The notes under the pieces were generated by a model that had not been told where the DNA came from, searched no databases, and was given only the letters and a program-made list of their open reading frames with translations. From NCBI GenBank assembly GCA_030765585.1, contig JAVCCJ010000121.1, positions 7,233 to 71,232 on the forward strand: 64,000 bases of DNA, read 5' to 3'. The position numbers and the translations under genes are program-made. Shown piece after piece: positions 18,648-57,200 of this stretch. Within the stretch, counting starts at the first letter, position 1; every line of letters starts with the position of its first letter. This stretch comes from Candidatus Zapsychrus exili. GTDB lineage: Bacteria; Omnitrophota; Gorgyraeia; Zapsychrales; Zapsychraceae.

Positions 18648-18684
18648 GGTAAAAGTTAAAACATAAAGGATAAAGGTACATAAA

Positions 18685-19014: not shown

Positions 19015-19102
19015 AGAAGCAGGGAATAGGTATTAGAAAAATAGGTTCTAGGGGCTAGGTGTTAGGCGATAGGTGTTAGGTTTAAACTAAAAGAAATTAA
19101 TT

Positions 19103-20773: not shown

Positions 20774-20783
20774 AGGTAAAAAG

Positions 20784-21056: not shown

Positions 21057-21072
21057 AGAGTAAGGATAAAAA

Positions 21073-24306: not shown

Positions 24307-24385
24307 TGCGAAAATTATTTTACGAGAAGGTTGCAGAATTAATAATGTGGCAGGGATTGCTTTTAATACACAAGGGAAATGAAAA

Positions 24386-24730
24386 ATGTTGAAATCATTA
24401 AAAAAACATAAGAAGCCAAAAGGACAATCTTTTTTAGAATATGTTCTGCTGATTGTTTTTATTATTGCTGCTTTATTGGTTTTTCAGAAATATATTTCTC
24501 GAGCAATATGGGGAAGATATAAGTCAGTAGGAGATGCGCTTGGCAGTGGTTTGATATACGATCCAGAGAAAACGTTAGAATGTGGGTATGATCATCTGTA
24601 TGGATCTGGTTGGTACAATGCTGCTTGTTACGACGAGAATGATTGTGCACAGTATTGTGCAGCTAAGAAGCAGGCACCGTGCGTTAGTTGCATAGGGGCT
24701 TGTTTCGCTGCAAAATGTAGTGAAAATTAA
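24386..24730 (+). CDS. Flp-like prepilin with a Cys-rich C-terminal knot
   Basis: KPKGQSFLEYVLLIVFIIAALLVF. C-terminus has 9 Cys (CAQYCAAKKQAPCVSCIGACFAAKC). Confidence 0.65.
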   Translation: MLKSLKKHKKPKGQSFLEYVLLIVFIIAALLVFQKYISRAIWGRYKSVGDALGSGLIYDPEKTLECGYDHLYGSGWYNAACYDENDCAQYCAAKKQAPCVSCIGACFAAKCSEN

Positions 24731-24990
24731 ATGTTTGATGTTGGAAAATTGATATGAATATGGTGATTCCGCATGAGTCATTATTTTGATAAAAATTAAA
24801 TAAAGATATTAGGTATTTTTTTTGTTGTGATAAAATAAATTAGTAGACAGTTCGTGGGAACACAAATTGTAGGCCAAAGGCCGTCTGCGAATTTATCCCA
24901 AGCGTTAGTCGAGGGATTTTAATTAAGAGATTTTGGTAGTTTTGCTTTGCAAAAAACCGGAATGATAAACTTACGGGAGAAGTTCATTTA

Positions 24991-25848: not shown

Positions 25849-25860
25849 TAAGAGGAAAAT

Positions 25861-30254: not shown

Positions 30255-33200
30255 ATGAAATCAGCCGCGGAACAAAATAGAGAGCCAGAAGATGATAGAA
30301 AAGCCGACAGCTCAATTGGCAATATGAGCGAGAATACGGCTTTTACTCATCAACATTCTTATGTTCCTACCAATAGGACTTTCTTAAACTCTGAAGATTG
30401 TTCTGCTGATGCTCAAAATATTTCAAATACCCAACCACAAGAAGAACCAATTCCACATAAATCACGCTTTAAATCTTGGATTAAGACAGTTGCATTAATA
30501 ATAATATTGGTTTTTGTTCCTGAGCAAATTAGTTGGGCATTTAGCTATAATCCTCTTGTACTTTGGAAAGATAAGGCTACTGTTGCTTCACAGTATCTTG
30601 GTGATGGAAATACTATTGCAGCAGAGAACCAAATGACAGAAGAGCAAATAGTCTCTTTACGTGTGTCAGAAAGTGTTAGCCATTTTTTAAAACAACTTCA
30701 AAACAAAAATGCTCAACAAATACAATTACAACTTCCAAATCCACACAAATCAAAGCTAGTTAAGGATAATCAATATAATATATTAATTAATACTGATTTG
30801 GCTTTTAATGAGTCAAATATTGCTGAAATTGCAACTTGGTTAAGAGAACCTGCAATTCACCCATTAAATTGTGGCGTTTATGCTCTTAATGATATCCTTG
30901 CTAATTATGATGTTAAATTAAGTCTAGAAGAAATCTCAGTTATGTCTCTTTTAGTTGATTTAATCAACGATATCGTTCGCCCTGGCGAACCAAAGCTTAA
31001 AACATCTCTTTACGCGATAAACAAGATTACAGAAGCATACGGAATTAACTTAAAAGCAGCAAAGCTTGCACCAGCTGATATTTTTGATTTAGAGCCACCT
31101 TTTATCGCTAATTTTGATGATGAGCATTTTGTGACTGTTACAAAAGTAGACGATACAAGCGTTTATTACAATGATATAGGTCGCGCGTCATCAAGTTCAA
31201 GATTAGATTTCTTAGACCAAGTAACAGGTTTTGTTTTAGCTCCTGAGCTAGAAGCTCAAGATGATGTAAAATTTGAGTATGTCCCTGATGCAATGCAGGC
31301 ATTTATTTGGGGTTCAAAATGGCATGGTAATCTTGATAATCTTCCAGGATTGTACAGCTGGGGAGATGTTGCTATTGGAGCTGCTTTTCAAGTTGTTGGT
31401 CTTTTTACCGGTGGTCTTGCTAGTAGCGTATTAAGTTTAGGTGCAGGTAGTTTTCTAGGTTCTCTTACAACAGCTATTGCTTTAAGTGAGTGTTATGATG
31501 CAGAAACTGGTGCGGCAGATCAGGGTTGTTTAGATACAATGTTTGTTTTAAATATTGTAGGAACTTCAGCAATATCAGCCGGCAGTGGCGCATTAAATGC
31601 TGATAGCTTTGATTTAGGCGCTTTCGCAGGAGACTTTGCTAAAGGCGCTGTTGTTGGGCTTGGACAAGGGTTGATTATGCTTTATGTAGGTAAATTGCTT
31701 AATGATTTACTTGAAGATTGGGATGCGCCTGATGCTCTAAAACAAGCAATTATTGGCGCGGTTTCATCTGTTGTAGCAACAACTGCAATGGGCTTAGTTG
31801 TAGATGGCCTAGACGCTGCTCTTAAAGAAATGGGTGTCGGAGAAGGCGCTAAAGTTGATTTGTCTTTAAAGAGCGTATATGCCGGAGACACACAGGTAAA
31901 GGTAGAGCCCGAATGGGCAGTTTGGAAAGCAACGGCTATGGGTAACGTTTTATCCGGCTTAAACAAGGTTGTAACATTTATAGGAAAATATACTGGAATT
32001 TCATGGGCGTTAAATCAACTTAATAAAGGCTGGAACAAGCTAGTAAAGGGCATGATAGGCTCAAATTCAGGAGCTGCAAAAACTTTAACTGCTACAGGAA
32101 AAGCTTTTAACGGCATAAAAAAGGGAGTTAATTATGCGCTAAACGGAAAGTTTAGTCCAGTAACTTATGTAATCAAAGCTCTTGCGGTTATTCCAAGAAC
32201 TGTTAGAAATCTTATGTCTGAAGGTAAAAAGGTTTGGGGAGTAAAGCATCTAGTTTTTGCATTAGAACAACATAATTTTTTAAGACAAATGACAGTGTTG
32301 GCAGTTAGATACATTTTATCAGAAGGTAAAATTCTTGGAATTGATGATGGCAATAAAGAAAATAATGGAGATGATGGAGAAGACCGCGGAATAGCATTTG
32401 ATTCATTCCTTTCTCAAGCAATAGGCATGGGCGTTGGTATGTTTTATGATCATGTTTCTATTGGATTAGATAATCGTGATAATTTAACTAAAAGAACGGA
32501 AAATGAAATTGCACAAAAGAAAGCAGAGGCAGAAGGGTTAGATAAAAACGATCCAGAATATGGTGATTTTATACAGAACAATATTGTCTCAATGACAGGT
32601 ATGTCTTTAGAGGATATTTTCGCTAAACGAGCAGAGTTTGGTTTAAGCGAAAACAGTGATTTTGCTCAATACCAAGGAAAAAGAACTTCTGCTTTTATAG
32701 CAATACTTGGAAAGTCGGTAGCCTCAGTATTATTAGCTAAACATTATGATAAAAAGGAATGTGCAAGAGTAGATTGTAATGAAACTGAAAGACTTGGAGA
32801 AGACCCGAATAGAGATCGCATAGGCTTGCTTAAGTTCAGGGCAACGCAGTTTCTTATAGGCGGACTTATTGAGGGCGGAATTGCTATTTTAACTGAAAGT
32901 AATAGAAGGCCAGATGGTGCTGAGCTTACTCAAACAGATAAAAAAGTAGAGCTTGATAAAAAGATAATTAATAAATTAGCTAATAAAGATGCAGATAAAC
33001 TCGAGAATGCTTTAAATACAAGCATGATGTTAGTAAATGAAAAAGGAGAATTGATAGATAATCTTAATGCTACAGAGAAAACATCTAATGAAATGCTTCT
33101 AGCAGCAAAGAAAAAATATGAACAAGCTTATAGTGAAGGCGGCGGAGCAAATGGAGAAGGCATTGAGAAAGTTTTAGCAGCAGCAGGATTGTCAAAGAAA

Positions 33201-36200
33201 GAGTCAAAAGAATATTTGAAACAACGCGCGAAAGAATTAGATAAAACTAATGATGTTTCTAAGCTTTTCTTATTATTTAATGGCAACTTTGTAGCTAAAA
33301 CTATTCAATCGATGTATTCCGCTAATGGCAACAGTCCATATGGAATAGTTGGATATGATGATGGTGTTGCTGTTTATGATCAAAGAGGATTTGTAAGAGC
33401 TGATGAGGATGCATCGCCTACAGAAAAATTAATTTCAAGCATAGCTGCTCGTTCTTCCTATATTAATGAAATGGTTGGTATGTATGGAGGAATGACTCTT
33501 ACAAAGAGATTAATGGTAAGAGAGCAAAATGAAAAAATGGAAGCAGATATGCGCAGAACTAATGAAGTCTCATCAGCTGCTCCTATATCTGAAGAAGAGC
33601 TTGCGCGTCAAATAGGCGCTGCTCAGATGAGAGCAAATGTTAAAACATTAGATGTAATACATAATAGTAACAATTATTTCTTAGATGCGATCAATCAGTC
33701 CTTAGCAACAGCATTATTCTCACCTCAAGATAGCCCTATTTTACACGCACTTGATTCTTTAGCATTTGATTTTGTTGATGCATCAATAGAGCAACAAGCA
33801 CAGGCTGCCTGGGAAGATGAGAGTAAAAAACCAGATACAAATAAATTAGCATTTCTTCAAAACAAACGTCAAGAGCTTCGCGATGAGGTAGCAATGAATT
33901 CTGATGACAAGTTTGGTTATTCGCCATCTGATTCTGTAGATGTATCAATAGAACAACAAGCACAGGATGCTTGGGCAAAAGAGGGCAAAAAGCCAGATAC
34001 AAATAAACTAGAATTCCTTCAAAACAAACGCAAAGAGCTTCACGAAGAGGCAGCAATGAATTCTCCATGGTTAGGCTTGGGTATGGATTATAGATATCTT
34101 GCTAGCGAACAAATAGGCGAGGGAATAGATAGCAATAAAATTACTTATAAAATGAGTGAGAATTTAGTATTTAATTCAGGCAAGGGTATTTTGCTAGGAA
34201 CATCTCTTGAAAAGAAGGGTGATCTTTTAGAATATGGTTTAGAAAAGTTAAATGTTTATTATCAGGATGAAGTTGGTAAAGGAGATTATATTGGTGAAGG
34301 CTCTGATCGTGATTTTAGCGGAACAATAGTTAGAGATATTTCTGGCTTAAGCGAAATAGACAGAAGAGAATTAGGTTTTGATCCAGAAAAGATGAAAATT
34401 GCGACTGAAAATGATGGAGATAAAGAAATAGTTGCAGTAGGACTTGCACAAAAACTTAGACAAACAGATAGAAAAGAAGACGTATCTGCTCTTAATGAAG
34501 AGAAAAAGGGCAAAATCATTACTAAAATAGATGGTACAACACGTCTTGTTTTTGGTTATGAAGCAGAGCATTTAGCAGAACAAGGCAAGAAATATGATAT
34601 GACAGTTGATGTTGGTAAGTTTACTGTTAATGAAGAAACAGGCGACAGAATTCATTTATCAGCTCAGAGACAAGCTGCTCCTGATGCACAACTTTCAGAT
34701 AGTTGGGTAGTTACGCGACAAGATTTTAATGCAGCAACACCAAAAGATATAACAGCTACTACAATGTTTTTTGCTTCTCAGGGGGAAGTTATAGATGAGC
34801 AAGGCAATGTATTAGAACAGTATGTTGCTAGCATTAGTTCTGAAGATTGTGTTACAGGTTGCACAGATCCTAAAAAAACCTGGTATGTTAATCGTTCTCT
34901 TTTTGCAAAAGAAGGTGATAAAAAAATAAGTGATATGGATGATCTTGGTTTTGATACAAATCTTAAGACTTTTGCGAATAAAGATGTAAAAACAGAAATA
35001 GCAGCTCTTAAAAAAGATTATAAAAGAATTGATGATTCTACAGAAAAAGATGAGAACCGTTTAGCTGTAGTTAATACAATTATTGATCATGCAATTGAGG
35101 ATAAAGAGTCAAATCAAATCGCAAAAGAGCTTTATGGTTTCGCAAAGATGGTTGAAGAACATAAAGTAGCATCATCTCTTGAAATTGGAGCTTATACCAA
35201 TAATAAGGAAGGCTCTAACCAAGAAGGAGAAGAATTATATCTTGGAATAGCAAGATACAACACAGATGATAAGGGTAATGTAAAAGATACTTCAACAGTT
35301 CTTATTAGTGAACCTCAAATATATGATAAAAATGGCGCTGTTGCAACGACTAATTTTATTTATCAAACAGAACAAACAAGCGCTTTTAATGTGGGTGATT
35401 CTGCAGTTTATGGAAAAGTTGTTGATGGTAAAGAAACACTTGTTAGTGCAGAAGAAATAGATACATATAAAGATAAAAAAGGAATAAAGGGAGATGTTAA
35501 ATCAATTGCTGTTGTTCGTCAGGTAGCAAAAGGCGATATAGATCTTTCTAGCGCAGTTGAAATGGCAAAAGGCTTTGATAAAGATGGAGTTGATAAGTTT
35601 GGAGATACGCCAGAGAATTTTAATGGCAAAGATTATATGAGTTTTGTTGCTGCTTCAACAGAAGATGGCCAGACAGCTGTTTTAGAAGCAAGCAAATCTA
35701 AACTAGTTCAAGGATATTCTGAGATTAAAAGTTCAGTTAAAGTTCATTATGATCATGATTCTTATAAATTAGAAGCAAAAGCCAAAAAAGATTTAGATAG
35801 TGCAGCAGCAACATTAAATGATAACGATCAAAAAAATATCATTATAAATGGAAGAACAGATTCGTCAGGTACAAATCAATACAATGTGAAGTTAAGTTTA
35901 AATCGTGCGCTTGCAGCAAAAGATTATTTAATGGAGCAAGGTATATCAGAAGATAGAATAATAATTCGCGCTCTTGGAGAAGGAGAAGCTGATCAAAGTA
36001 TTGCTGAAAGCATCCGTTCTGATAAAGAGATTGGTCGTAAAGATAGAAATAGTTCTTTTGAGATAGTAGAGAAATCGCCTCTGGGAGATTCTAAGATTAC
36101 TTTTAGGGTAGATAAAGAAGGCTTTGTTAAGAGAGCTAGCACAAATTTCTATACCGCAGGGTTGGATAACGAGGGTAGCAGTATTGTTTATGATTTAGCT

Positions 36201-39200: not shown

Positions 39201-42200
39201 TATAGCGGAGAAATGTCTTTTATAAAAGGAAGAACCTCTAAAGAAATAGAACAGATAAAAGAAAATGATATAACAGAGTGGTTTCCTAATGCAACAGAAG
39301 GCAAAGAAAAAGTTAGCGTACAAATGGACTCAGATGCGATTACGTCAGAGGCGATGCAAATTAAGCGTTATGATCCAAAAACAGGCGCTCATGTTACTGA
39401 CAGATATCTTGCAGGCATGACAGCAATAAAGGGAAATGACGGAATAATTAGATCACAATTTACTACAGAAGCTAGTTTGTATAATGCTGATACTAAAGAA
39501 ATTGGTAATGCAGGTAATTTATTATATGATGCTGCAGCATCTTTCTTGCTAGATTCTGTTGAAACAGATAAAGGTAAAAAGGCAGTATTTAAATTTGTTC
39601 CAGAAGGGCAAGATCCAACTGTTTTTACTGCCACATCTAAGGGAGGCATAGAAACAGTTAATACGATCTATACAGACCCTGCCACGATTAAAGAGGCTAA
39701 TGAGGCAAATTCATCAGGTGCTTTATTGCCAGAAGCTATAGCGCAAACTTTAGATCCTAACAATACTGGTTCAATTCAAAGAGTTTATCAATATCAGGGC
39801 AAGAAGCTTGTTAATGAATATTTTGCTGTTACGAGAGCTAAAGAAGACAGTAGTAAGGTAGAAAAATTTTATGTAGACGGTAAATATGCTAATCCAAATA
39901 ATGCAAATGAATTAAAATCTCTTATTGCAAGCGAATTAAATCTTGATTTAAAAGAAACCAAGACTTCAACATTACAAGATTTTTCGTATTCTAAAACAAT
40001 AGAAGATGATGCCGAGGTAGTGTATGTTTCTCCTCAAGGAAAAGTTTACTTAAGGATGGTAACAGGCAGAACTATTATAGAAACACCAAATAGTTATTCT
40101 AGTTCATCAACTTCTACTAGCGAGCAACATGATGTTTTTGCCTATGATCTTGTAACAGGCGATGTTGAAGAAGTAGATGTAGAGAAGACTTTTGTAGATG
40201 TTGTTACTGATAAAGATGGTGCTAAGAGATATGCACTTAAATATCTTGTTCCTGAGAGTAGAACACGATATTCGATAGGATTGCCTATTTCGTATAAGCC
40301 TGCTGGCGTACAAGGCATAGAATTTAAAGATGAAGATGGAAAAGAAATTTGGGCTGATATCAATTATATAAAATCAGGCCAATTAAATGGCGTAGGAGAA
40401 GAAAAACAGTTTGTCGCTGTAAGTATTCAAGATGCAGGATGGTCTAAAAACAAAAGAAACAGAATAATTGATTTAAGCACCGGTCGTGAAATTACAAGAG
40501 AAGGTTTTATTGAAACACCAGAAGGCGGAAAATGGGACTTAAATAGATATAAAGGCAAAATAGTTGAAATGGTTAAGGCTAAAGGTTTCTGGGGAGACGT
40601 AGGAGATGTTGCTTGGAATGGTCTTAGAGGAGAAGGAAAAGAAACTTATGTGAAGAATATGTTGATGGATTGGGGCATGTCTTATGCTTCAGCCGGGGCA
40701 TTAGATGTTTCTAACCCAAGTGTTGCAGGAGTTGTAACAACCGCTCTTATGTTTACTGGCGTAGGTTCAGGACTTGGGCTTATAGGTAAGGGTGCTAAAG
40801 CAGGTTCTACAGCTGCTAGGGTTTATTCGATATCGCGAGCAGCTTTAAAGACAGGCCTTATATTCGGAGGAATAGATACCGCAGCATATGTTGGAATAGG
40901 AGCGCTTACTGGACAAGATTTAAACTTTTCAGATGGACTTGCAGCTTTTGCAGGTGGGGTTAAGATGGGCGCTACTATGACTCTTGGTATAACTGGATTA
41001 GGAGCTGTCAGCGGAAGAATCGCTAATTCTATTAATGCTGTTAATGGTGTTGCTGGCACTGGTAAAGGATTTAAATTTGTTAGTAAGACATATAAAGGTT
41101 TTGGAAAAATGGCAGAATGGAAGCAAGCAGCAATTTTAAATGGTTCATCTGGTGCAGCAGTTAATGTTACGCGCGGTATGGTTGCAAATTATTATGAAAA
41201 TGGTGGAGAATTAGATTATAGCTTGAGATCTTTTGCAATAGATGCAACAGCTGGAGCTATTATTAGCGTAGCATTAGGCGGCGTTGGATCAAAAGTGATG
41301 AAAGGATCGTTTAACACTAAACAATTGCTTGGTAACAATATGATTCATTATGGTTTAGTTGGTTTAGGTGGCGAAACTGTTTCAACAGGAATATTTAGCG
41401 ACAAGGAAATGACATGGACAAGAGCAGCAGGAAGTTTTGCTATGGGCGCTATTGGTGGATTAGTCTTTAGATCGACATGGATTCCAGAGATGATGGGTGT
41501 TAAACCTGCTGAAATTATAGGTGAAACAGCTAAAGTAACAGAAGGAGTAACAGAAGGAGCTACAAGTTTATTTAGAAATATTAAGAATCCATTGAAGCTT
41601 ACAAAAGCTGCTCAAGGTGTAGAATCTGGCGCAACCGTTCTTAATTTCTCTAAATTACGAACAATAGGAACTTTAACTGGTTTAGGTGTAGGCGCAGGCG
41701 CAGGTATGGCAGCTATGGATGCTAGAGTTCATGCTAAACAAGATGCAAGAAAAGCGGGATTCAAAGAAGGAACTAAAGCATTTGATTCTTTTGTTTCAAA
41801 GGAAACTAGTAATAATTTTAGGAGTTGGAAAACAGCAAAATACATGGGTGCAGGCGCACTAGCTGCAAACGTAATGTTCTTTGGAAGAAGAGCGATACAG
41901 ATGAAAGGCAGAGCAAAACTTTTAGGCACACATAGCAATAAGCGCATTACGCTTCCTCTTATTGCTGATGAACCTCATTTAATTGCAAGCCTATCTTTAT
42001 TAGGAGCTGCGGATTTTGCAATGATCATGCCAGCTTGGGGTGCACTAGATTCAGTTATATATACAGGATTAACCGGTGGAAATCTAGAAGAAGGTTTTTA
42101 TCATTCGTTCCAGCAAAAAGATGTTGATGGAAACGATTTGGGTGTTTTTAGCAATTTAGCTGTTCATTCTATTGGTGGTGCAAAATTAGGTGCTCGCTTA

Positions 42201-45200
42201 GGACCTGTTTTAGGTATTGCTCAAATGCCTCTTTCAGCTTTAGGTAAAAAATCAGCGTTAGCACCAAAGAGTATTTCAAAATTTTCTGCCAATAAATCTA
42301 GCGGTTTGAGTATTTCAAAAATCTTAAGTAGTCCAACTGCGCATAGTATGCCAGTAACTGTAGCTCAATTAGCTACTGTTGAAGTCTTAGCTGAAAAAGT
42401 ATTAGAAAATACATATTTTAAAACAGCTGCAGAAAATAAAGCTGATACTCTTTATAACTCGCATTTAGAAGAAACAAAGATAATGACTGGCGCATATCCT
42501 ACAACAACAAAGGCGCAGTTTAGAGAAGAATATGCTAAGAATAAAATAAAAGAAGATGCGGGACAAATAGCTTTTGCTTCACTTTTATTTAAGCCAAGTT
42601 CGATGCCTGGAGCAGAACCAGAAACAGGTGGTAAAGGAAATAAAGGATCTACAGCAGAGGCAAAAATAGAAACACCTCCCAACAAACCTTCTGACAACGC
42701 ACTCTCTGCGGATGCACAAATTAAATTATCAACTAAGCAAACAAATATAGATCAAGCACCAGTTGCTAAGCCAGAGAAATCGATGCTTTCTCGCATGACT
42801 ACCGCTGTTGATTATATCGGTTCTAAGTTCAAAGGTCATAATAATAACATACTAAGACAAAAAATAGGAACGCAATCTTTAGAACAGAATGTTATTATCA
42901 CAAGTTCTTCTAAACAATATGTTAAGGCGGCAAAAGAAGCGAGACGCAGAGGCACAGAATCAAAAGATAAAGAATACAGAGATTTAGATGAAATAGATCA
43001 AGTATTTAATATGTCAATGGATAGCTTAAGGGAGAGCATTGAAGCAGACGGAAGAACAAAATTTAAAGTAAAACCGAAACAATTAGCTCTTGTGTATTCA
43101 GTTATAGAACATGCAATTAAGGGAGAGAAGCTGTTGGCAATAGAGCCTGTTAGTGGCGGTAAAACAGTTTTAACAGCAGCTATTGTTGATTCTTTAGCTA
43201 AAAAAGGCAAAACAGTTGTTGTTATTGTACCGTCAGGTAAACTTGTAGATCAATATATGAATAGTGCTCTTTTCGAGAATGGCAGATTTACAACTCCTCA
43301 GACTCGCAATAATGGCAAAGATGCTGTTCCTGAGGCTTTAAAAAAGGGAATGGTTTATTTTATGACTGATGCTCAAGCTAAAGATTTTGTTCTTCATAAG
43401 AATAAAACAGGAGAAAACTTTTTTAAAGATGCACAAGGATTTTATGATGAAGCTCATAATCTTTTTACTATGTCAGACAAAATTATAGGCGGCGGTTCAG
43501 AGCGAGCCGCAAAGATTGTCGCAGAGAATTCTTCTCAAGCAAAGAGACTGCAAAGACAATATGATACAGATACGGAACTTGCTAGAATAACTGTTGATTT
43601 GGTTAGAGAAGTTGGCGGAGAAGTTGAATATTTAGTTGAGAATAAGAATTCAGACAGAATGTCACATCAATTTAAAGAGCAGGCAACTTATAGAAACGGT
43701 AAGAATGTTTGGGCTGTTAAAGACGCTAATGGAAAATTAAGCATTGTTAAGAAAGGTACAGCAGGAGCAGAGATTTTAAGACCAAAAGATATTGTTTTAG
43801 AGAGATTTAATAAGTCTGTTAAAGAGAAGAAATTAATAAGATTTAAATCAGATCATTCAAAAGCTTTGCTCGAAGATTTTGCAGGTTTAGCTAAGTCAGC
43901 TTTTCAAGAAGCTAGAATAAGGACAAAAAATAAACAGGGAAATCTAGAATCTGCTCCTTTAGATGCTTATACAGGCGAAGCACGTTGGGGTGAAATTTTT
44001 AGCGATCCTACAGGAAGAAATACAAAGGCAAGGGCTCTTGTTGCATTAGAAAGAGTACTTGCTCTTGAACGAGAAGGAAATGTTAATCTAGAATCGTATA
44101 TTAAAAGCGCCATTAATAGTACAGAACATAAAGCTCGTGGTGCTGATTTCTTAGATATGTTTGATAATGTGACTTTATTGACTGGTACTGCTGGTGAGGT
44201 AAAAGGTATGGCCAAAATGAAGAATATTAATATGGTTCAGTTTAGACCAGAGTATACATTAAAAGACATAGGACCTGAGAATGTGACTTTTGAGACTTCA
44301 GGAAAGTCTAAGATCGATATGATAGTAGACATTATTAGAGATGAAATTAATTTAGCTAAGAAAGCAGGCGATAATTTTGTATTGATTACTACTAATTCAA
44401 GGGAAGCAGGCGTATTGGGCGCTAGAAAAGCGCGTCAAACACAAAACCTTAAAGATAAGGGTTACAAAGTAGAGTATGTTTCTGATGCAAAATTAGCTGA
44501 GAGAATAAAAGAGATTAATAATTCTAATGCTAAAGAAAAGATTGTTATTGTTACCCAGGTAATTGAAGGCATTTCGGTTGAAGCTAAGGGTTCTGGTGTT
44601 GTGATGGAGACAGCTGTGCTCTCTGCGGCAGATACTACGCAAGCCCTAGCTCGTATGAACACATTTGCAGAGGCAAAGGATTCTTCGAGAACAAAGGCTA
44701 AAGCTAAGGTTAAATTACATATAGATGATCACTTAATCTTAACGGCAGAAAAACAAAAAATACTTGAAGCCCAGGGAAAACTTGATCAAGCAAGAAAAAC
44801 TAATAGCTCTGATGCAATAAAGAATGCCGAAGCCAATCTAGATTTAATTTGGAGAGAGATGATGCACTCTCTAACAGAATTTAAAACAAATCAAGGCCTA
44901 GCCACTATAAGTACAACGGTTGTAGAAGGGGTTAAAAGTAAAGTAGCAAAAGAGTCGGTACAACAGCAATTGAGATCAACAACACATGGCATTTTATCTG
45001 ATATAAGACAGGAAGCTCATAAAGACATTGCATTAGATTATATGAACAAAACAGGCAAAACATCTGCACAAATATCTTTGTCTGATAATAAAGGATTTGA
45101 AATATTTTCATCAAGCAAAGAAGGTGACGAGATATCAGTTGATAATATAAATAATGTTGGGCTTGTAGCAACAGAAGAAATAGAATTAATCCACGGAGCA

Positions 45201-48200
45201 AAATTAAAAGCTGGGCAAACATTAGATTATGAAACTGGATTTGTCTATGAAGCGCCACAAAATGAATTTGATATAAAAGATTTTAGTCAAATAAAGAGCG
45301 AGTATCTTCCTGTTGGCGTTATTAGTATAACAAGAGAAGATGTAAATAATCCTAAAGCTAACTATAATCCTGTTGTTAATACAGTTGTAAATGGAAAAAA
45401 GGCAGCAGCAATTGAGCTTTCTGATTTGGGTAAAAATACCTTGTTAGATAGACAAATAGTATATGCAGAAAACAGTGATGGCAAGATTGATCAAGTAGCT
45501 TATAGGGTTAAGCCAATCATCTCCAATGTAACAGTAGGAGCAGCTTTAAGTGCAATTAATATTAATGATGATTCTTATGAAATAGATAATGATGGATTTG
45601 CTATTGTTCCTATAGAAACATTTAATAAAGCTTTTAGCAAAGAAAATGCTCTAGATAATAGCGTATTTGATGGCATAGGCTTTAAGTTTGCGCAAGATAT
45701 AACAATACATGAAGGTTTTAAAGAAAAACGTTCAGACGCGATTACTGGTAGAACTAGAAAATCAAAGAATAAAGTTGCGAAAGATGCATTAAAACTATCA
45801 ATTCAAAAAACAGTAGAAACTCCAGAAATAGCTATTGCATTGCCTGACGGTCAAGGTGGCACAAAAACACAAAGAATTAAAATGGATGATTTAAGAGAAC
45901 TGCAAACTCGTATGGCAAGTTCTAAATCACCTGACTCAGACGTTAATCTTTATTTTGCTGATTATGATTCAGAAGAGTCTAAGGCAAAAACTAATAAAGC
46001 ATTAAACAATTTAGTTAGATTTTCAAATCCAACAACACAAGATGACAAAGATTGGGTTGCAAGTCTAAATACAGAAGAAGTGGTTCATTATGATACAGCA
46101 GCTAAATCATTAAAAACACGCGGCATATCTCCAGTTGAATTTGCTATGCGTTTTCAACATCAAATGGGTGGAAAGAATTTTGGCGGACATACTGGTTCTG
46201 GCGGTCAAGATGCATTAGGCAATAAGAGGGATCAACAAAACGTATATGTTAATGAATCAGCTACACATATTTTTGATTACTATCAAGACATAGAACGAGA
46301 CAAAGGATTTGAAGCTGCTAGTGATACTGAAAAGATGATGGAAACAGTTCTTCATGAGCAAATAGGTTTTGCTAATAGAGATTTTTCTCATTATCAAAAC
46401 GTTGAGGTTCGTCGTGTATGGTTAAAGGCAACTGAAGCTGTGAAGCAAATGAAAGAAAACAATGTAGATACAGTAGAGCTTCAATTAGTTGATGGATCAG
46501 GTTATGAAATTTACGAAGCTATTAAAGAAAACGGTAAGACAATTGGTGCGCAACCTATAAAATTAGTTGCACAAAATTCGGACGTTAAATTACGTCATTT
46601 AAACACAACACTAGCAAAAGGCGAAACACTAGATTATAAGGCATCATCTAAAACAGCATCATTGGATACTGGAAGCATTAAATATAAAAGTGTCGATAAT
46701 CAAGAAGACAAAATAGTATCAAAATTAAAAGTAGGACAAGATATTGTAAATATTACAGATCCTAATTTAAATGGACATACAAAACTTGCTCAAAGAGCAG
46801 TAGCTGATGTTGAGGATGCTGCTAGTATTTTAAACAAGATTGATTTATCTTTAAATGGAACAAGAAAAGAATTTGCGTTAGACAGACATATAAAGACTAT
46901 TGAGCAGTTAAGAAATACAAACAATGTATTTATTTCTAAAAATGCTGGCGCTATGAGTACTGATGACGGAAGAATGATTGTTGGAAGACTTGATAACAAC
47001 AATAATAGACTTGTATTAAATTCAGAGGCTAATGGAGAAATGGCTGATATTTATTTAAGAGGACAGAAAATAGTTGAGAACGTTCCTTTAAGAGTAGCTG
47101 CCATTATTAGTGAAGTAGATAGAAAACATGATGCAGGATTTGAAGTATACAAAGCTAAAAATGATGCACCAGCACAATCTAAAGCATCTGACAACGCATT
47201 AACTGCTGATACATTCCACCCTGCAAACATCACAACAAGAAAACAAATTCAAGGTATGATGCGCGATGGTGTTGATCAAGCACTTATGACATTAAGAGCT
47301 GGTGGATATGATTCTAAAGCTAAAATAATGAATTTTACAAAAGCTAATTTACCTGATAGCTTCAACAAACGTGTTAAAGATTTTGCAATGCGCGCTCGCG
47401 TTCGTGCAACAACAGCAAGAGAAAGAGCTCAAAAGGATACATTTGGTTCTGTAATTCATGCTTCTTCAGGTCGTGTTAGTACATTAGAATGGGGACTTCA
47501 CGAAGCAGGATATAAAACAGACGAAGCAATGGTTGCAAAAATAGCTGATATCGTTGCAGGCGACCCACGTAGAGTAGAAGGTGATATTGCAGTTTATGAT
47601 TTTAGTGATGTTAAAGGCACTACAAGATTAGACAATTATGAACTCCATGTAGATACAACTCGTAATTTTGATGATAAATCAATGCTTTCAATATTTGCAG
47701 ACGCTCCACAAGGTCAAACAATTGCATGGTTAGGTGAAAATATTGCTGTTGTAAATACAGATATATCAGTTGGTGGCGAAAGCGAACTTGCACGCAGCTG
47801 GTCAAAGATAGAGAAAAAATTAGGAAATCAAAATTTTGATGAGCAATTAGCAATGGTAATGCAATTTGATATTATCGATCTTAATAAGTTAGTTGCTTTA
47901 GCTGTTGAAGATGCTAATACAGAAGAAGCCATACTTGCTCGCGCTAAAGGTTTAAGTGTTGATGCTCCAATTTATGTAGCTGTTATGCGTGACGAATGGG
48001 TATTCTTTGCAGTTGTAGATGGCAAGCTTGTAGGCGAGCCACAAAAAGCAGAAGATATTTCTAACGGACTTGTGTTAATGTCTAAGGAAAGCATTCCAGG
48101 ACATGTTGTAGCTAAGTTTAGCGAAAAATATGTTGTTGCTCAATCTGTTCTTAATCCAGAAACTAGCATACCTACAGCGCTTGGAAAAGGCCAGTGGGCA

Positions 48201-51200
48201 CCTATTGAAGGTCAATTAGCGTCTATGAGCGCTACTGCAATGCTGTCAGTTGTTCCAAGCGTTGCTAAGCATGAAAAGATTGTTGTTGTTCAATCTGATG
48301 CAGGACAAGCAGAGAAAACAGCCATAGAGTTTGCTCTTGCAATACCAGAGAAACAAATTTATGTAGTTAATCATACAAAGACAAATCAATGGTTCGTTAA
48401 AGTTACAGTAGCGGATGGTGAAGCTAATATATCCAATGTATTTATTACAGCTGATAAGCTAGAAAATGGCGTTGTGGTTGTTGATGCTGCAATGTTGTCA
48501 GAAGCTGCATTTGATATACTTCGCGCAAATGGCGCAATAATAAGCAAAGCTGCAATGCCAGATAGTTTTGGTGGCGAAGATAATGTTAGCGCAAAAGCAG
48601 TTAAAGCAGTATTCAATACAGACTACAGACAAAAGACCATAGACCAAAGACTAAAAACAAAAGAAGCAGCAGAAGAACCAGTAATTGTCGTTCCTGTTGC
48701 TCCTCGCAATGACGCAATTGATATGCCAGCAATGGTTCCTGCTGCAACAATACCTGTTACTGTTCCGATGCTTATGAGCAGTGGCGTAGGCGATAATAGT
48801 CCTAATGTAGAGCTTGCTGATGCTGCAATGACAAGTGGTCCTGGAAATAACAGCCCTAATTACAAAGATATAATAGCTAAGAGTGAAGAGCTGATAGCTG
48901 ATAGTGAAAAGACAATAGCGATTAGTCAAAAGATAAGAGCTGCAAGTGAAGAGATAAGAGCAAATAGCAGAGCGATAAGGAAAAAGATTGCTACGTCAGG
49001 TTCTGACGATGCAATGTTAGCGGCAGCAAAAACAGACGATATTATGCAATATCTGCCTTATGATCGCAAGATTGAAAATGATGTCTTAGTCAAAATGAAA
49101 CAAGATGTCGGTAGAATAGTAGATATCATAAATGAAACAAATAGAAAGATTGAACCTGAGTTTAGCGTAAGAGACGATCAAGTTAAAATGGCTGAAGCCT
49201 TGATAGAGGGTAAGGTTGTTGTTGCTGAAAATGCTGCTGGTAAAACACTTGCTAAATTTATTGCAGGACTTGCAAATATAGTGAATGGTCGTCAGGCAAC
49301 TATTTTAACTCGTGATGAAAACGATAGTGCTAAGTGGATATTAGAAGCTCCAGAAGAAGGGTTCGGAGCAAATTATAGCCAAATGTTAGCTGCTACAATG
49401 AAGGAATATGAACTTGAAAGTTCTGGTATCGTAGACTTAGATGGTTTAATGAAGAGATATGATGATGCGCTTAAGAAAAGAAGAACAATTGTAGCTAATA
49501 AAGAAATTAATGAAATAAAGGGACAGATATTAAGAGCATTACAATCTAAAGATATGTTAAAGATTGTTTCAATCAATGCTCGTGGTCATATGCCGAACAG
49601 ATTCCTTGATGATGATTTAATTTTACAAGGTATTAAATCAATCAAGGATGACGGCGATACTATTTTAGATGAGGCAGACGACCTTCTTCTACTTGAAACT
49701 ACATATATCCAATCACAATCACAATCTGTTAAGAAGAATAGTAATTTACGCAAGATTGTATCACAAGCCAAGAAAATATTTGATCAAGTTAAAATAGGCA
49801 CAGACGAAGAAGATGCTATAAAAGTTGCTGCATCAATTCAAGACTTCGAAAAGCTTAATAAAGCAAATAAGAAAGCTGTTTGGTATAGTCAAGGTTCAGG
49901 TTTAATTGGTGCACCAGACTTGCTTATTTCTGATGCTGTTTATGAAAGTTTTAAAGAAGGTACATTGCCTACTATGATTGAAGGCGTTATTAGAGGAAAG
50001 ATAGAAGAAATAGGCACAAGACTTGCAGCAGATCTTAATAAGGGCGAACTTGTTCCAGTAACTCGTACTGGTGAACTTCAAAGCGATATGATCTTTAGCC
50101 AAATACCATACAAGGTAGCTCAAACGCTTAAGATTAATGAAATACTAAAAGCTCGTGGAGATAGTCAACTTAAACTAAACAATATTACTGTTACAGGTGA
50201 TACTGTTCGTGAGAATCCTATATCAGAAATGCTTCAAGGAAAAGGTAGAGTTGTTGGTGCAACTGCTAATAAGGCGGGTGCTGAGTATATTATACAAGCT
50301 AAGACAGGTTCAACAGAAGGTATAGTTACTATTGGAGAAGAAAGTAATGTCTTTAAACAAGCAGCTCTTCCAACAAAGAATTATCGTCATGTTGATATTA
50401 CAGGACAAGCAGGCGGGCTAGTTGATCAGCTAGCTTCTATGGCAGAAAAATCACTTGCCGATAATAAAGGTACGTTGATATTTACATCAGATCATGTTCA
50501 GTTACGTAAGATAGCTGAAGACTTAAAGAAGAGATTTCCTAATACAGAAGTTGGCGTTATTGACGAAGATACAAAGCCAGAACAAATAGAAAAGTATAGA
50601 AATGAAATAGGAACTCATAAAGGCAACTCTACTCCACGTATTGTTGTATCTCTTCCACGTGTTGCTAAGCAGGTTAGTTTTAAGGGTAATTTAGATGTAA
50701 TAGTTTCTGATGGTGCAAGTTGGCCAAAGGCTGATCTTACTCATGCTGTTAACAGAAACAACAGAAGCGAGAAGCTTGAATTAAGATTAGGTCGCTCTTA
50801 TGTATTAGTAGACAAAGAAGCTTTAAATAAGAAATTTGAATTTGTTCGCAATCTTGTGCCAGAAATAAAGGGCTTAAGCAAAGCGGATGATGTAAATAAA
50901 TTAGTTGATGAAATAGAAAAAGCAGGCGCTGGCGATACTTTAGCATTGTCTAAAAAACATAGACTAGTTGCTGAATTCTTACAAGCACAACAACGTTCAA
51001 GCTCACACAAGCATACTATACTTACTTTATTTAGAAACAATCGTCAAACTGAGCCAATGCAAGATCTTTATGATTCAAGAGTTGGTTCAGATAAAAAGAT
51101 TGTACAAGAAATTCTGTTTAAGGAACGTGCAGGTCTTTATGGAAACACAATGCAAAAACTTCATGATAATCCATTTACCGGCGAAGAATGGGTAAGGGAA

Positions 51201-54200
51201 GCTTCTAGACAAAGCTGGGAAGCCGCAGTTAGAGAATGGAATGATTTACTTGAGCTGGCTAAAACAAAGGGTGGTTCAGCTGAACTTCTTGCGCGTGTTG
51301 AAGAACAAATTGATCTTATGAGGGATCGTCAAACTAATGAGCCTGGTGAATATTTAAATGTAGTTGCTAATGGCAAGGTGTTGAATCAATTTGCTGATGT
51401 TTTAAAAGATGCAAATAAAGAGCAGAACAAAGAAGTTCGTCTAAGAAAATTAGAAGCAGGTCATAAAGGTATATTAATGGCCGCTAAGTATCTTGGTGAA
51501 GGAATTATACCAACACGTGTTACAGCATTCTTCAAAGCAGATAATATTAAGTCAGTTGCATCAAAGACAGATAAAAGTAAAGATATGACTTATGTTGAAT
51601 TTGTTAAAGGACTTACATCCGAAGAAAAGAATAAGTTTAATTTATCTATGTATGGTTTTGTTGTTGAATTAAAAGGTGAATATACTCTTGCTCGTCGTGG
51701 ACATCAATTAATATCCATGTTGGATGCTTTTGAGAATTTAAGCCAACAAGATATGGATAAACTTGGAGCGACAGTTGGAAGCCATACTCCATTTACAATC
51801 GCAGTTCAATTGGTTCAAGCAGATATAGTAGATATAAAAGAAGCTAAACAGTTAGCATCAATGGTTAATTTCTGGTTAGAGAATGCTGGTCAAACAGAGC
51901 ATATAGTTTCTTTAAGTGAAGAACAACAATCTAATTTCTTAAGCAAACTTAAAAAATTGACATTGCTAATATCTGATAAAACTTACACATTGCTTGCTTC
52001 TATTGGAGAAGAAATTGGAATAATTGATAATGTTGATATGCTTACTCAGATAAAGTCAAGATCTGATGCAATTACGCAGGCATTAGAAGGGGTAAAAGAT
52101 TTAGAAGCGCAAAAAGCAAAAGCAGGATTATTAGGAATTAGATTTAATGGAAAATTAAAAACTGCTGTTAAGACATTAGTTGAGCTGGTTAATCCTACAA
52201 TAGCGAAGATGGCATCTCTTCAAAATGAAATTGCATCTGATAAATTAGATATAGGCCCAATTGAATTTGCCGCTATTCTTCTAAATAGTGACGAGTTAAG
52301 AAACATTGAAGATATTAGTCGTGCAGAGAAGACATTAATATATATAGGAGAGACAATAGGCTATAAGCAATTAGATAAAAAACAAATAAATTTTGTTGCT
52401 TCTTTATTAGAAGAGTCGCTAGTATTACCTGCAGTTCTTTTAGTTGAAAGTGAAAGTATATCTGATGCTCAAAGAGAGCAACATATTAGAGTAGCTGCTA
52501 ATAAGATTGATCAAAACGCAAAGGTTAAGAAGCAAGACCTTCAAATGCTATTCTATCAAATGTTATCTAATCCTCATAAATTTGGTTTAACAGCATCAGC
52601 TGCAAAGAAAAAAGTAAGAAAGTTCAATTGGAAGCTAGATAAAGCAGATACATTTAAGAAGATAAGAACTACTTTAGGAAATGAACTTGCATCTAGATTA
52701 AATCCAAAATTAGGCTTCTTGGATAAGTTTAGTGTTTCTGATAATGAAGAGTTTAAGCTTGTTTCAGGTCGCATAGATTGGACAGATGAGCAAGCCGAGC
52801 AAGAATATAATAAATTAGCTGATAAAGAAAAAGAAATACAAGAAAAGACAGAAGAGCTTGTTCAGAAATTAAAAGAAAAACAAGAAGAGACGAAAGGCAA
52901 TGTTCAAGAATCAGTCAAAGAGGTTAAGAAAGCAAGCTTCTTAAACAGATTTAAGCCAACAATTGTTTTTGAAGGCAACAATATGGCAGAAAAGGTGCTT
53001 AAGGCAGGAATTAAAATAGGTTCTGTTACTTTAGGTTGGATGTTAGTGCCTTCGGTGTTGATTGCATCTCTTGTGTTTGGCACATCAGGTCTTGGGATTA
53101 TTGGAATGGTATTGGTTAGTGCCACTATTCATGAAATAGGTCATATTGTTGCAGCTAGAATATTAGGAGGAAGCCAAACTTATCAAGGAATGGGCGTATA
53201 TGGTCCAATAGCACAGGCTACGCTTAATACGAGAGGACTTTCTAAAAATGCTATAAGAATTATTGCAGCTATTGGTCCTATAACAAATATATTGGTTGGT
53301 ACTGTGGCCTTAGCTTTTGGAGTTGATCCATTTACTGCATATCAAGGAATAGAATTCTGGGGCGTTCCTGTTAATTTAGTTACTATAAACCTTGTTTTCT
53401 TAGCTGCGGTAAATCTTCTACCAATACCTGCGTTTGATGGTCTTACAGTTATAACAGGTAAAAACACTAAGACATCTATGGCTTCAGGGTCTGGAAAAGC
53501 TTTCTATTCAAGTATTCCACTATATGAATTTGTGTTATATGTTGCTTCTGTTCTGTCATTGCGAGGAGTAAAGCGACGCGGCAATCTAGAAGAAGAGATT
53601 GCTTTGCAAAAACCGCTCGCAATGACCGATAATGAGAAACATACTCAACAGTCAGCTATATTTGAGTCACAAGACAAGATTGAGGCAATTAATTTGAACA
53701 TTGAGCTTGAAAAGGCTGTAATGCCTGAAATTCCAGCTATGCCAGATAGAAGTATGCCGTTTGATCCATTAGGTATACCAGTAGCTCCGATGATTCCTCT
53801 TGGAGCACCAGCTTTAATGCTGTTAGGGTCTGTTTCAGGCAGTGGTCCAGGTGGAAAAGCACCTGTTAGTATGGTAGAACAACAAAGAGAATTTGGTCAA
53901 AATGAAGCAGATATTAAAGTAGCACAAGCTCAGACAGGTAGCGAGGTAGGGTTCTTATTAGCGTTTGCTCTCGATCTTAAGAGTCGAATGAATTTTAGTA
54001 GTACCGGTCTGAGTCCAAATGCGATAAGCGCTGCCATCCTTTTCCGCAAAGGATCAGGCAGAGCAAATGTAGTAGCGCGGATAATAGTAAATGTAGTACA
54101 TGTTGTAGCAAATGCAGTAAACGTAGTAAGTAGCAATGGTTCTAAGCCGTTGATATCTAGTGACTTCGGTCATAAAGGTAAAAATAACGGAGAGCCTGGT

Positions 54201-57200
54201 TCACGTAGTGTGTCAAAAAGCCGAGCAATTGAAGTTAAGGCTGGTAGTAAAGCAGTAGTAGCAAAGCTTGTAAGAAACACTTTGGTCAGCATGATAGAGT
54301 ACTTCAAACAAGTTGCAGTAAGGGTTAAGTTGGCAATGAAGGTTCAGGATGATCGCACTGAAACAAGGTTACGTGAAAGCAGAACCACAACAGTAGCAAA
54401 AGCAGTAAACGTAACAAATGAAGCAGAAGTAAATGCAGTAAAAGCAATTGTCATAGAAGAAGCACAAGTAGTATCAGTAGCACAAGTAGCAAGTGCATCT
54501 AATGTTAAGGCTACCGTTGCGGAAGGATTGGAATCCGTATCTAGATCTGCATTATTAAGATCTATGATTAGCTCATCTGCCACAATGGCAGGAATTGTTC
54601 TATTCACAATTAGAGATGAAGTTACTCAAGGCGTTGGTGAACTTTACGCCCAAGTTGTATTTAGGGGTGTGAAAAATGTGTCATCTGAAACTAGTCTTGA
54701 ATATAATGACGCTCAAGGTGCGTCTAATATCAAGATAAGGATAGTAAGCCTTGCTAAGAACATATATAGAAGTCTTAGAGTGCGCGAAGAATCAGGAGAC
54801 GCGGAACCAGGGGCTTCACCAGTTTATAAGTTTGTCCCAACAATTAACACCCAAGGAAACCAAGCCCTGGGTGTGCCTGTATTCCTATCAGCGAATATCA
54901 TAACTATAGGATCATTAAATTCTATCCACTTCTTATTAGGGGCAGCTGCTATAGCTGTTATGCTTGCAATGTTAGCATATGCAATCTATAGAGGTGCGCC
55001 AAATACTATTCATGTAAATTCAATTAAATCAAACACAGATAACAGCCTTATAAATAAAGCACGTGCATATATACGCGCGCGAGTTACTTATAAGGCTGTT
55101 TTATTTGGTAGTTTAAACCATAACGAGTCACAAGCCACGGACTCCAAACAAGGAGGTACATTATGGTCTGCATCAATACAATCAATTCAAGAAGTTTTAG
55201 CAAAAATACAGAAGGCTTACAAATCACACATTTTGTCGAATATCCAAACTCAAGCTGCTTTATCGCAACCGCAAATAACAAAGACACGAATAGAACAAAA
55301 GTCTATCTTGTTGGACAAGATGAACGTATTTATGAACGCTGTGGACTTAAAAGCACTTGGAATGAGCTTCAAAGCGAAAACAAGCGATTTCTTACAAAGC
55401 TTGTTAAAGAAGCTTTCAGCAACGAAGATGTACCATGTTATACAGCTAATAGTTCAAGCATACTTAACTAAGAAAGAAGTAATAAAGAATAGTAATGAAG
55501 TGGAAGTCGTTAGTTCCGTGGCTGGAGGCTTCTCGGCTCCACTTCTTACTAAGCAATTTGTTGAACAAATTGCTAATAATGGGGAAGAAAAATATTTAGT
55601 ACAAGCTAGTAATGGAGTGGAAGTCGTTAGTTCCGTGGCTGGAGACTTTTTGACTACACTCCTTGCTGGCATAAACAGATTTAAAGTAGCATTTGCTACA
55701 GTAGCCATATTACTTTTAAATACAGCAGTTAAAGCGCAAAGTGCTATAGCTGATACAGCTGCCGTTGTTGTAGATTCCGTGGCTGGAGGTCTTAACACAA
55801 CGGCAGCTGTTACTGATTTAAGCAGCCCAACATCTGAATTTTTTGCTCAAATAGGCAATATTACATCAGAGAGTGTATTGATAATGATCGCAGCGGCATT
55901 AATCGCAAGTGTAGTTACATGGTTTGTTATATATGTTGCATCAAAGAAATTAGCAGTAAATATAAGTAGAAGCGGTGCTTTAACGTTAGGTTTTGCTGTG
56001 GCATTTTCAGGATTAAAATTGTTTACAATAGCAGCTCCTATAATTAAGGAAGTGTTTGCCACTACAACATCTTTAGGGATGTTAGAACATTTTGCAACAA
56101 TGGCACCAGTTGTGCTTATACCTGTTTTTGCATTAATGCTTGGAATTTCGCTTGTTGCTTGGAACATTCAAAGAATTTATAAGAGCAAGACAACAGCTAT
56201 AGCTTCGCCATACAATTTTAATACTCTTTCTAAGGCAGAAAAACAAGTTTATAAGAAGGAATTTAAGAAACAATATAAACCGCTTAGAATGAGTTTTAAA
56301 GAATTTGGTCGTTTTGTTTCAGCAAGAAGAGAAATTGTTATTTCTTTAACAGTTATTGGAGCAATTGTAGGTGTTTTAACAAGCACGTCTACTCTATTAA
56401 CAATGGTTTCAGCAGGTGTTCAAGGAGCTTTAGTAGGATTTGTTTCAGTGTATCTGTTATCAGTGCTTTGGAATTTCTTCTTTGGATATGTTTGGAAGAA
56501 CACACAATTTGTTGAGTTTGTTGAAGATAATAGAGGAAGATTTAGCTCAGATGAAACAATCATACAAGAAGTAAAGAATTTAGAAGAGAAGCTAAGTAAT
56601 ACAGGCGTTTTAGAAAATAGCATATATGTAATAAAAGATCTGTTGATTTCGCTGACACTAAGATTCCCAGTTACTGGAGGAATCATACAGTTTGTGATTG
56701 GTCGTGGTTTCTTAGCTTTAGCTGGAAGCTATGTAGCCGGACCAATCACTGCTTTAATCAGCCCTTCAATAACAACTACATCTATATTAGGTTTTTGGCC
56801 AGCTGTAGTAAGTTTCTTAAAAGGCATATACCTTGATACAACAATAGGCGGATTTATAAGATTAGCTCTTATGGTTATTTTCCTTAACCTTAAAAAGATA
56901 CCTGCTTATTACAATATGACGTTTAAATTGTTCACAGGTGAGGCAATTAATACATTTAATCTTAAGAGCCATTTAAGAGAACTTCATAAGAAGCTACCTT
57001 TACATATATTAGCAGCGTTTGTGTCAGTAGCTTCTATTGTTTTAGCCCCTGCTTTTGGTATTATTTATTTAGCTAATATATCAGCTGAAGCTAATGCACG
57101 GGATGTAAATAAATATGCAAAGGTTATTGGCGATATGGGTAAAGATTTTTGGGTTGGAATGTGGAACATGTGGTTAATCTCAATGGAAATTGGTCTTATC

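Follow-up and report, generated by a model that had tools for sequence, protein, structure and literature searches.

Two ATPase modules, one of them with a predicted SecA-like fold, in a compact giant protein of Candidatus Zapsychrus exili (Omnitrophota)

Some bacteria with tiny cells produce and place envelope proteins that range in length from 10,000 residues to over 80,000. West-Roberts et al. 2023 (bioRxiv 10.1101/2023.11.21.568195) described full-length giant genes, mostly from Omnitrophota, that encode many transmembrane regions. Most of the giant Omnitrophota proteins carry divergent SecA DEAD and preprotein-binding domains beside the transmembrane regions, and N-terminal C39 peptidase domains, sometimes SLT domains, are found in them. 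A conserved locus resembling a type II secretion system (T2SS) or pilus, with PilZ genes, lies upstream of the giant genes. The authors put forward the hypothesis that export of the giant itself, or of accessory proteins, may be the task of these SecA-like domains. A 2026 Omnitrophota preprint reports a SecA_DEAD architecture cluster among long proteins, and Tad cassettes that adjoin the giants. SecA-like motors fused into giants, in the literature since 2023, are the sole concrete lead to how this is done. Here we describe a giant gene with two ATPase modules in a 64,000-nucleotide stretch of Candidatus Zapsychrus exili DNA (GenBank assembly GCA_030765585.1, contig JAVCCJ010000121.1, positions 7,233 to 71,232, forward strand), referred to below as the window. 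Its product is an unusually compact case of the recently described giant-protein class, for which SecA-like domains were already reported in 2023. An initial annotation, made from the sequence alone, had stated that no mechanism was described for such an arrangement. The window matches the published description feature by feature, so this statement was wrong; self-export through SecA-like domains had been proposed by West-Roberts et al. In that paper and here, self-export is a hypothesis.

Inspection of the window revealed a single open reading frame (ORF), at 30255-60032 (+), that encodes 9,925 amino acids (aa) without an internal stop and is the only ORF of such size. An open frame of 29.8 kb in DNA of 32-39% G+C cannot be accidental. 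All the motif strings quoted in the initial annotation are found in its translation, in two modules:

Module 1, AIEPVSGGKT: from aa 4295, nt 43137 (+)
Module 1, GKTVVVIVPSGKLVDQY: from aa 4318 (+)
Module 1, FYDEAHNL: from aa 4396 (+)
Module 2, GKVVVAENAAGKT: from aa 6319, nt 49209 (+)
Module 2, GRQATILTRDENDSAK: from aa 6345 (+)
Module 2, ILDEADDLL: from aa 6470 (+)

From one Walker A motif to the other the distance is 2,027 residues, or 6.1 kb, as first estimated (about 6 kb). The modules had also been described as separated by thousands of residues, which was an overstatement, as about 1,460 residues lie between them end to end. In a shuffled protein of equal size, about one loose Walker A and about one DExD/H pattern are each expected, and therefore the motifs by themselves prove little. 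They are more than chance because module 1 has Pfam and phrog matches, and module 2 has homologues and a predicted fold. The presence of two modules in the giant ORF is confirmed as a real observation.

We examined module 2 by model-based fold searches and by comparison with its relatives. Its elements are listed below, with their conservation in the family alignment:

49077..52715 (+), aa ~6275-7487: unit common to the relatives, module 2 plus a helical extension of ~540 aa (phmmer against the homologues and metagenome locus L001)
49122..51104 (+), aa ~6290-6950: module 2 core, predicted SecA-like DEAD motor with insert domain and long C-terminal helix
49230..49247 (+), aa 6326-6331: motif I / Walker A, NAAGKT; GK[TS] in 10 of 10 family members
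49668..49679 (+), aa 6472-6475: motif II / Walker B, DEAD; DE in 10 of 10 family members
49704..50246 (+), aa ~6484-6664: insert between motifs II and III, in the model placed where SecA has its preprotein cross-linking domain (PPXD)
50250..50270 (+), aa 6666-6672: motif III, VVGATAN; G-x-[ST]-A in 9 of 9 family members
50739..50765 (+), aa 6829-6837: motif VI, THAVNRNNR; [HQ]xxxRNxR in 7 of 7 family members
50784..50798 (+), aa 6844-6848: RLGRS, strand after motif VI; G-R in 5 of 6 family members

The AlphaFold2 model of module 2, built from a 14-sequence alignment, reached a mean pLDDT of 78.3. When this model was searched with Foldseek, the top 29 matches were all SecA or SecA2 (E 1.7e-13 to 2.7e-7), with alignments of ~790 columns that span SecA from end to end. 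DinG (8.4e-7) was the best match outside SecA, and DinG and XPD were the best non-SecA folds. SecA and SecA2 thus came first, with a clear margin over the remaining superfamily 2 (SF2) helicases, and the DEAD-motor fold, with its two RecA-like domains, is closest to SecA among SF2 ATPases. In the model, the insert of ~180 residues forms an alpha/beta unit bounded by strands (model residues 195-202 and 356-364). The second RecA domain is followed by a 44-residue helix (model residues 609-652, aa 6898-6941) and then by further helices, in a region that is conserved among relatives ('SSSHKHT'). We infer, from whole-chain alignments only, that this helix is equivalent to the SecA scaffold helix. 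Neither a helical wing domain nor a C-terminal linker with a zinc/SecB-binding tail was recognised in module 2; a tail of the CxCxSGxxYKxCH type is missing because the polypeptide runs on into an M50-like membrane domain. On the strength of the predicted fold, module 2 is very likely SecA-like in structure.

Sequence comparisons gave fainter signals. The only Pfam match of the window's module 2 was DEAD (E 0.017), and among the 14 family members two weakly matched SecA_DEAD (best E 0.004) and one P-loop_SecA (0.029). The family profile, run against the PDB, had its best helicase-type matches in SecA (E 0.02) and SecA2 (E 0.057), in the motif I region only. Alignment of the module 2 family with E. 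coli SecA by hhalign, for which the SecA sequence was verified against PDB 6s0k, gave an E-value of 8e-4 at a probability of 25%; the single modules against the single SecA were not significant, and single-sequence PDB searches with either module returned only noise. An apparent likeness of the modules to the SecA stretch GRRWSDGLHQAVEAKEGV...GMTGTA failed a shuffle test (p 0.12-0.9) and was not used as evidence. Sequence profiles being insufficient, it is the predicted fold that decides the assignment of module 2 to SecA.

Relatives of module 2 were found with phmmer, run exhaustively against 1.84 billion representative proteins with both modules joined as the query. The 13 matches, all to module 2, were 27-62% identical to the window copy. 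Six were looked up, among them all those that exceed 500 aa. Five of the six have an NCBI record, in each case as a partial hypothetical protein of a Candidatus Omnitrophota metagenome-assembled genome (MAG), and the sixth, P0002, is an ENA metagenome protein. P0002 is a complete protein of 4,551 aa with a DUF3179 domain (locus L082, an ERZ26696514 contig), and no Pfam match is on record for any of its fully read neighbours. A metagenome scan with the module 2 alignment yielded one locus, L001 (Ga0105164_10000004; 60% G+C, 35% identity), in which the giant ORF is open across the entire 11.6 kb. This contig stops within its homologue of module 2 and does not reach the upstream region in which a counterpart of module 1 would be expected. 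The module 2 unit travels among otherwise dissimilar giant proteins, in different genomic backgrounds. The helical extension had no PDB match, and no second copy of the module 2 family was found in the relatives or in module 1. A word-indexed homologue search with the family alignment found nothing although relatives exist, and is therefore uninformative; a genome-contig scan with aa 4262-6866 found no relative.

The family alignment showed that the ATPase residues of module 2 are intact, namely the Walker A lysine, the Walker B aspartate-glutamate pair and the arginines of motif VI. Since the motifs for ATP binding and hydrolysis are conserved, module 2 is probably an active ATPase. The string RLGRS, which had been proposed as a motif VI, lies 7 residues past the end of the family-conserved motif at aa 6829-6837 and is not motif VI.

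Module 1 is of a different kind. Its elements are the following:

43038..44744 (+), aa ~4262-4830: module 1, orphan SF2 helicase-type ATPase module
43149..43166 (+), aa 4299-4304: motif I / Walker A, VSGGKT
43446..43457 (+), aa 4398-4401: motif II / Walker B, DEAH
43458..44174 (+): insert of ~240 aa from DEAH to the candidate motif III (spacing read from the sequence)
44376..44732 (+), aa ~4708-4826: putative second RecA-like domain (matched weakly by the profile of the module 2 family)

Residues 4270-4411 matched Pfam ResIII with 31.6 bits (cut-off 22.5; 1.9e-7) and DEAD with 31.1 bits (cut-off 26; 2.4e-7), and module 1 matched phrog_16 'DNA helicase' at 4.2e-11. These matches mark a real SF2-type ATP-binding RecA domain, with motifs I, Ia and II, and judging from the sequence we hold with high confidence that module 1 is an SF2 ATPase-type module. 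That it derives from SecA is possible but doubtful. The candidate motif III (LLTGTAG, aa 4641-4647) follows an insert without a Pfam or PDB match; the position of the insert after motif II resembles the SecA layout, but helicases of the XPD/DinG type have an insert in this domain too. The putative second RecA-like domain aligned with the module 2 family in the same register, at levels that are not significant (hhalign E 0.17; hmmsearch independent E 6.8). Pfam gave no Helicase_C match to module 1, and neither DEAD_2 nor an Fe-S cluster signature was found in it. Module 1 and module 2 share no significant sequence similarity with each other. A word-indexed search with module 1 gave nothing, with a tool that is uninformative here, having missed known relatives of module 2. 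The initial annotation had taken both modules for SecA-like. For module 2, fold searches and conserved catalytic residues bear this out; for module 1, whose significant matches are to generic helicase profiles and not to SecA, it stays conjectural.

We then asked where the two modules lie relative to the membrane and to the other domains of the giant protein. Domains were assigned with Pfam, and membrane segments were predicted by a Kyte-Doolittle scan with 19-residue windows and a threshold of 1.6:

30867..31238 (+), aa 205-328: Peptidase C39-like domain (Pfam E 1.3e-7, above gathering score)
35748..35987 (+), aa 1832-1911: OmpA-family peptidoglycan-binding domain (Pfam E 1.1e-17)
40692..42224 (+), aa ~3480-3990: glycine-rich region 5' of module 1, possible membrane segments (two 19-residue windows above 1.6)
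within module 1 (+), aa 4270-4406: ResIII/DEAD helicase N-terminal domain (Pfam)
53010..53459 (+): M50 (site-2-protease)-like membrane domain (Pfam PF02163 E 8.3e-5, below gathering score)
54897..57092 (+), aa ~8215-8946: C-terminal strongly hydrophobic cluster (hydropathy scan)
within 58656..59405 (+), aa 9468-9571: Peptidase M23 (Pfam E 3.6e-13)
within 58656..59405 (+), aa 9624-9717: SLT lytic transglycosylase (Pfam E 3.9e-23)

The scan predicted an N-terminal anchor at aa 78-96, glycine-rich and moderately hydrophobic regions at aa ~370-520 and ~3480-3990, and a further strongly hydrophobic cluster at aa ~7586-7735. Between aa ~3990 and ~7585, a span of ~3,600 residues with both modules inside, a single window exceeded the threshold (aa 7378-7396, at 1.72), and peptidoglycan-directed domains flank this span on either side. 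The simplest reading of these two features is that the span is cytoplasmic, as we presume from hydropathy. About 100 residues separate the conserved module 2 unit from the M50-like domain. The motifs of that domain, HEIGH (aa 7626-7630; 53130-53144) and NLLPIPAFDG (aa 7720-7729; 53412-53441), lie in hydrophobic segments and are preserved in P0014, the closest relative, as HEIAH and NLLPIPGTDG. To judge by these motifs, a built-in M50-like intramembrane protease could cut the giant protein. The Pfam scan found no DNA-binding, methylase or nuclease domain in the giant protein, and no glycosyltransferase, methyltransferase, NUDIX or dockerin content.

A short motif, D-x-A-M-[TLIFVM], recurs in the giant protein at aa 3920, 5756, 6077, 6189 and 6251 (window ~42012, 47520, 48483, 48819 and 49005). 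With five copies where 0.35 are expected, it is strongly enriched; P0002 has 5 where 0.23 are expected and P0006 has 4 where 0.06 are expected, and the motif is present in P0001 and P0007 too. In five family members one copy stands 30-100 residues 5' of the SecA-like module, behind a proline-rich linker. The motif might mark a site of processing, or be a signature of linkers.

On the basis of these results we propose that the ORF encodes a giant envelope protein of Omnitrophota, of the giant-gene class that lies downstream of a Tad/type-II-secretion-like locus, in which one or more SecA-type motors would drive export in cis. We consider this overall reading evenly balanced between true and false, and put its functional core, polypeptide translocation in cis, slightly below that. 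Module 2 would be a very divergent SecA-type motor with two RecA-like domains, a large insert placed as the PPXD is in SecA, and a long helix of the scaffold kind, and module 1 a lineage-specific SF2 ATPase module with a large insert after motif II. Flanking transmembrane segments would tether the motor or motors to the membrane in cis, in place of the missing wing and C-terminal parts of SecA. ATP-driven threading would then move the protein's own extracytoplasmic arms through SecYEG or another channel, the arms being the N-terminal ~3,000 aa with the OmpA domain and the C-terminal ~900 aa with the M23 and SLT cell-wall hydrolases; a partner protein could be the substrate instead. The C39-like and M50-like peptidase domains might afterwards process the polyprotein. 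A more elaborate version is improbable: a self-contained, self-exporting polyprotein with two cis motors that divide the labour, each at an end of the presumed cytoplasmic span and beside a membrane-spanning cluster, so that the motor would be part of its own substrate. Module 1, located after the glycine-rich hydrophobic region, would thread the N-terminal ~3,000-aa OmpA arm, and module 2, before the M50-like membrane domain, the C-terminal M23/SLT arm. Cleavage of the product would fall to the C39 and site-2-protease-like domains and might take place at the recurrent D-x-A-M motifs.

Several results weigh against export in cis by SecA-type motors. Neither module of the window matched Pfam SecA_DEAD (PF07517), SecA_PP_bind (PF01043) or P-loop_SecA (PF21090) at E<=10. 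Pairwise Smith-Waterman alignment to E. coli SecA was no better than with shuffled sequences for either module (p 0.12-0.9). Module 1 has no homologue among the 1.84 billion representative proteins, and it is profiles of the DNA-helicase type that match it best. In its degenerate motif VI (TQALARMNT) there is one arginine instead of two or three, and it is not detectably related to module 2. Structure prediction, which placed module 2 with SecA and SecA2, failed for module 1, as its single-sequence AlphaFold2 model was unusable (pLDDT 38) and gave no Foldseek match at E<=0.001. P0002 and P0004, which have long upstream sequence, show no second helicase module, so that a layout with two motors could be a peculiarity of the giant protein described here. 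The membrane topology is based on a hydropathy scan only, and the glycine-rich region before module 1 is weakly hydrophobic.

The same data can be read in other ways. The motors may act in trans like an accessory SecA2 and export other proteins, be it pilus proteins, effectors, cell-wall hydrolases directed at prey, or what the next long ORF encodes. The fold evidence is compatible with this, as SecA2 structures are among the top Foldseek matches of module 2 and its longest fold alignment, 453 residues, is with SecA2, above any other structure. A second long ORF lies directly downstream and a secretion/pilus locus upstream, and export "of accessory proteins" is mentioned by West-Roberts et al. 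(bioRxiv 10.1101/2023.11.21.568195). However, no SecY2-like, Asp or other accessory Sec gene, and no SecY gene, was recognised by Pfam in the window, and fusion to a membrane protein with large extracytoplasmic arms of its own fits action in cis at least equally well. We regard action in trans as unlikely.

Polyvalent proteins of conjugative elements and phages join SF2 helicases to M23 and lytic-transglycosylase domains, and a DEAHNL box is typical of DNA helicases. One or both modules could accordingly be nucleic-acid helicases or translocases that work on DNA or RNA, for example in uptake from prey, rather than on polypeptides. The giant protein combines M23 and SLT with module 1, which has such a box and whose sole significant matches are ResIII, DEAD and the phage 'DNA helicase' family; DinG and XPD follow SecA in the fold searches of module 2. 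This explanation is nevertheless distinctly unlikely, with none of the Pfam domains of the giant protein being of the DNA-binding, methylase or nuclease kind, nothing from PADLOC, many predicted membrane segments and a pilus/secretion locus adjoining. Still less probable, in our estimate, is a loss of activity in module 1, and perhaps in module 2, which would leave a degenerate pseudo-ATPase whose sole role is that of a structural spacer or a platform for docking within a giant protein that evolves fast. The lack of detectable homologues, the degenerate motif VI, the missing Helicase_C match and the faint second RecA domain of module 1 would agree with it. Yet GKT and DEAH are intact in module 1, and all the catalytic motifs of module 2 are kept in relatives that are merely 27-34% identical, which argues for selection on ATPase function.

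The region upstream of the giant gene contains a Tad/type-II-secretion-like locus, as identified by Pfam:

2711..26754 (+): Tad/type-II-secretion-like locus, upstream of the giant gene
2711-4114 (+): PilZ and T2SSE ATPase fusion
9201-11087 (+): secretin and TonB_C fusion
11115-13274 (+): CpaE/ParA-like and CpaF ATPase fusion, 719 aa

The locus also contains two T2SSF genes, and its large ORFs at 13923-15905, 19103-20773 and 21073-24306 had no Pfam match. The fusions (PilZ-T2SSE, secretin-TonB_C and CpaE-CpaF) are unusual. Among GTDB species genomes, the closest matches to the CpaE-CpaF fusion were in two Candidatus Omnitrophota MAGs, with 63% and 50% identity, and the remaining ones were 35-44% identical at full length. 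The only sizeable minus-strand gene, at 27141-28010 (-), encodes a protein with DUF1016_N and a staphylococcal-nuclease-like part, and GC skew dips to about zero there. Between 28010 and the start of the giant gene, ~2.2 kb contain no plus-strand ORF of at least 90 aa. Neither tRNA genes nor Rfam features were found in the window, and NCBIfam and PADLOC scans gave nothing relevant.

At the other end, the next long ORF (59909-64000, +, frame 2) overlaps the final ~120 nt of the giant ORF. It has a TTG at 59918 and its first ATG at 60197, encodes at least 1,333 aa without a Pfam domain, and exits the window. The giant ORF closes with ~45 residues of odd hydrophobicity. A frameshift or an assembly error could have split a single gene into these two ORFs, or they could be a coupled pair of giant genes. 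Within the giant protein, a unit of ~45 residues is tandemly duplicated at aa ~1165-1270 (window ~33750-34065), read from the translation as SIEQQAQAAWEDESKKPDTNKLAFLQNKRQELRDEVAMNS and SIEQQAQDAWAKEGKKPDTNKLEFLQNKRKELHEEAAMNS.

With 9,925 aa, the giant protein is a much smaller example of its class and is easier to handle experimentally. Module 2 belongs to a motor family that standard domain searches miss and that structure prediction places with SecA, and its model adds evidence for a scaffold-like helix. The giant protein further contributes an ATPase module unrelated to module 2 within the one presumed cytoplasmic span. Residues 6290-7010, a fragment of ~720 residues with conserved catalytic residues, would be a realistic test piece for embedded motors.

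Of the known systems, generic SF2 helicases (ResIII/DEAD/Rad3-XPD-DinG) resemble module 1, whose first RecA domain passes ResIII and DEAD and has the DEAHNL box; XPD and DinG, too, have an insert within the first RecA domain. Unlike them, module 1 lacks Helicase_C, DEAD_2 and the Fe-S signature, has ~240 aa from motif II to the candidate motif III, and is embedded in a membrane protein in which no nucleic-acid-binding accessory domains were detected. SecA2 (M. tuberculosis 4uaq; C. difficile 6sxh) exports specific, often very large surface proteins. It does so as a separate soluble protein acting in trans, whereas module 2 is fused into its presumed substrate, and SecY2/Asp accessory genes of SecA2 systems were not seen in the window. 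With canonical SecA (E. coli 2fsf/3bxz; B. subtilis 3jv2), module 2 shares the local pattern around motif I and the order of motif I, motif II, large insert, motif III, second RecA domain with motifs V and VI, and long helix. The identity is ~10-13%, however, and no sequence-profile match is significant. In contrast to the soluble SecA of ~900 aa, module 2 lies in the middle of a membrane protein without a free N-terminus for lipid binding, has no recognisable wing domain or zinc/SecB-binding tail, and is followed by the ~540-aa family-specific helical extension.

The published Omnitrophota giants exceed 30,000 aa, against 9,925 aa here, and the glycosyltransferase, methyltransferase, NUDIX and dockerin content described for them is absent. 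Module 2 is too divergent for Pfam SecA_DEAD, and in its model the second RecA domain leads into a long helix, while West-Roberts et al. report no scaffold domain. The second, orphan SF2 module is a further difference noted here, the West-Roberts paper not having been checked for two-module proteins. In its main features the giant protein nevertheless resembles the Omnitrophota giants ('Archaeovorin', Dockerin-type): it comes from the same phylum, is encoded by a multi-transmembrane ORF, carries C39 near its N-terminus and SLT as well, has a SecA-like motor beside transmembrane regions, and follows a T2SS/Tad-like locus with PilZ, and for it, as for them, a role of the motor in self-export has been proposed.

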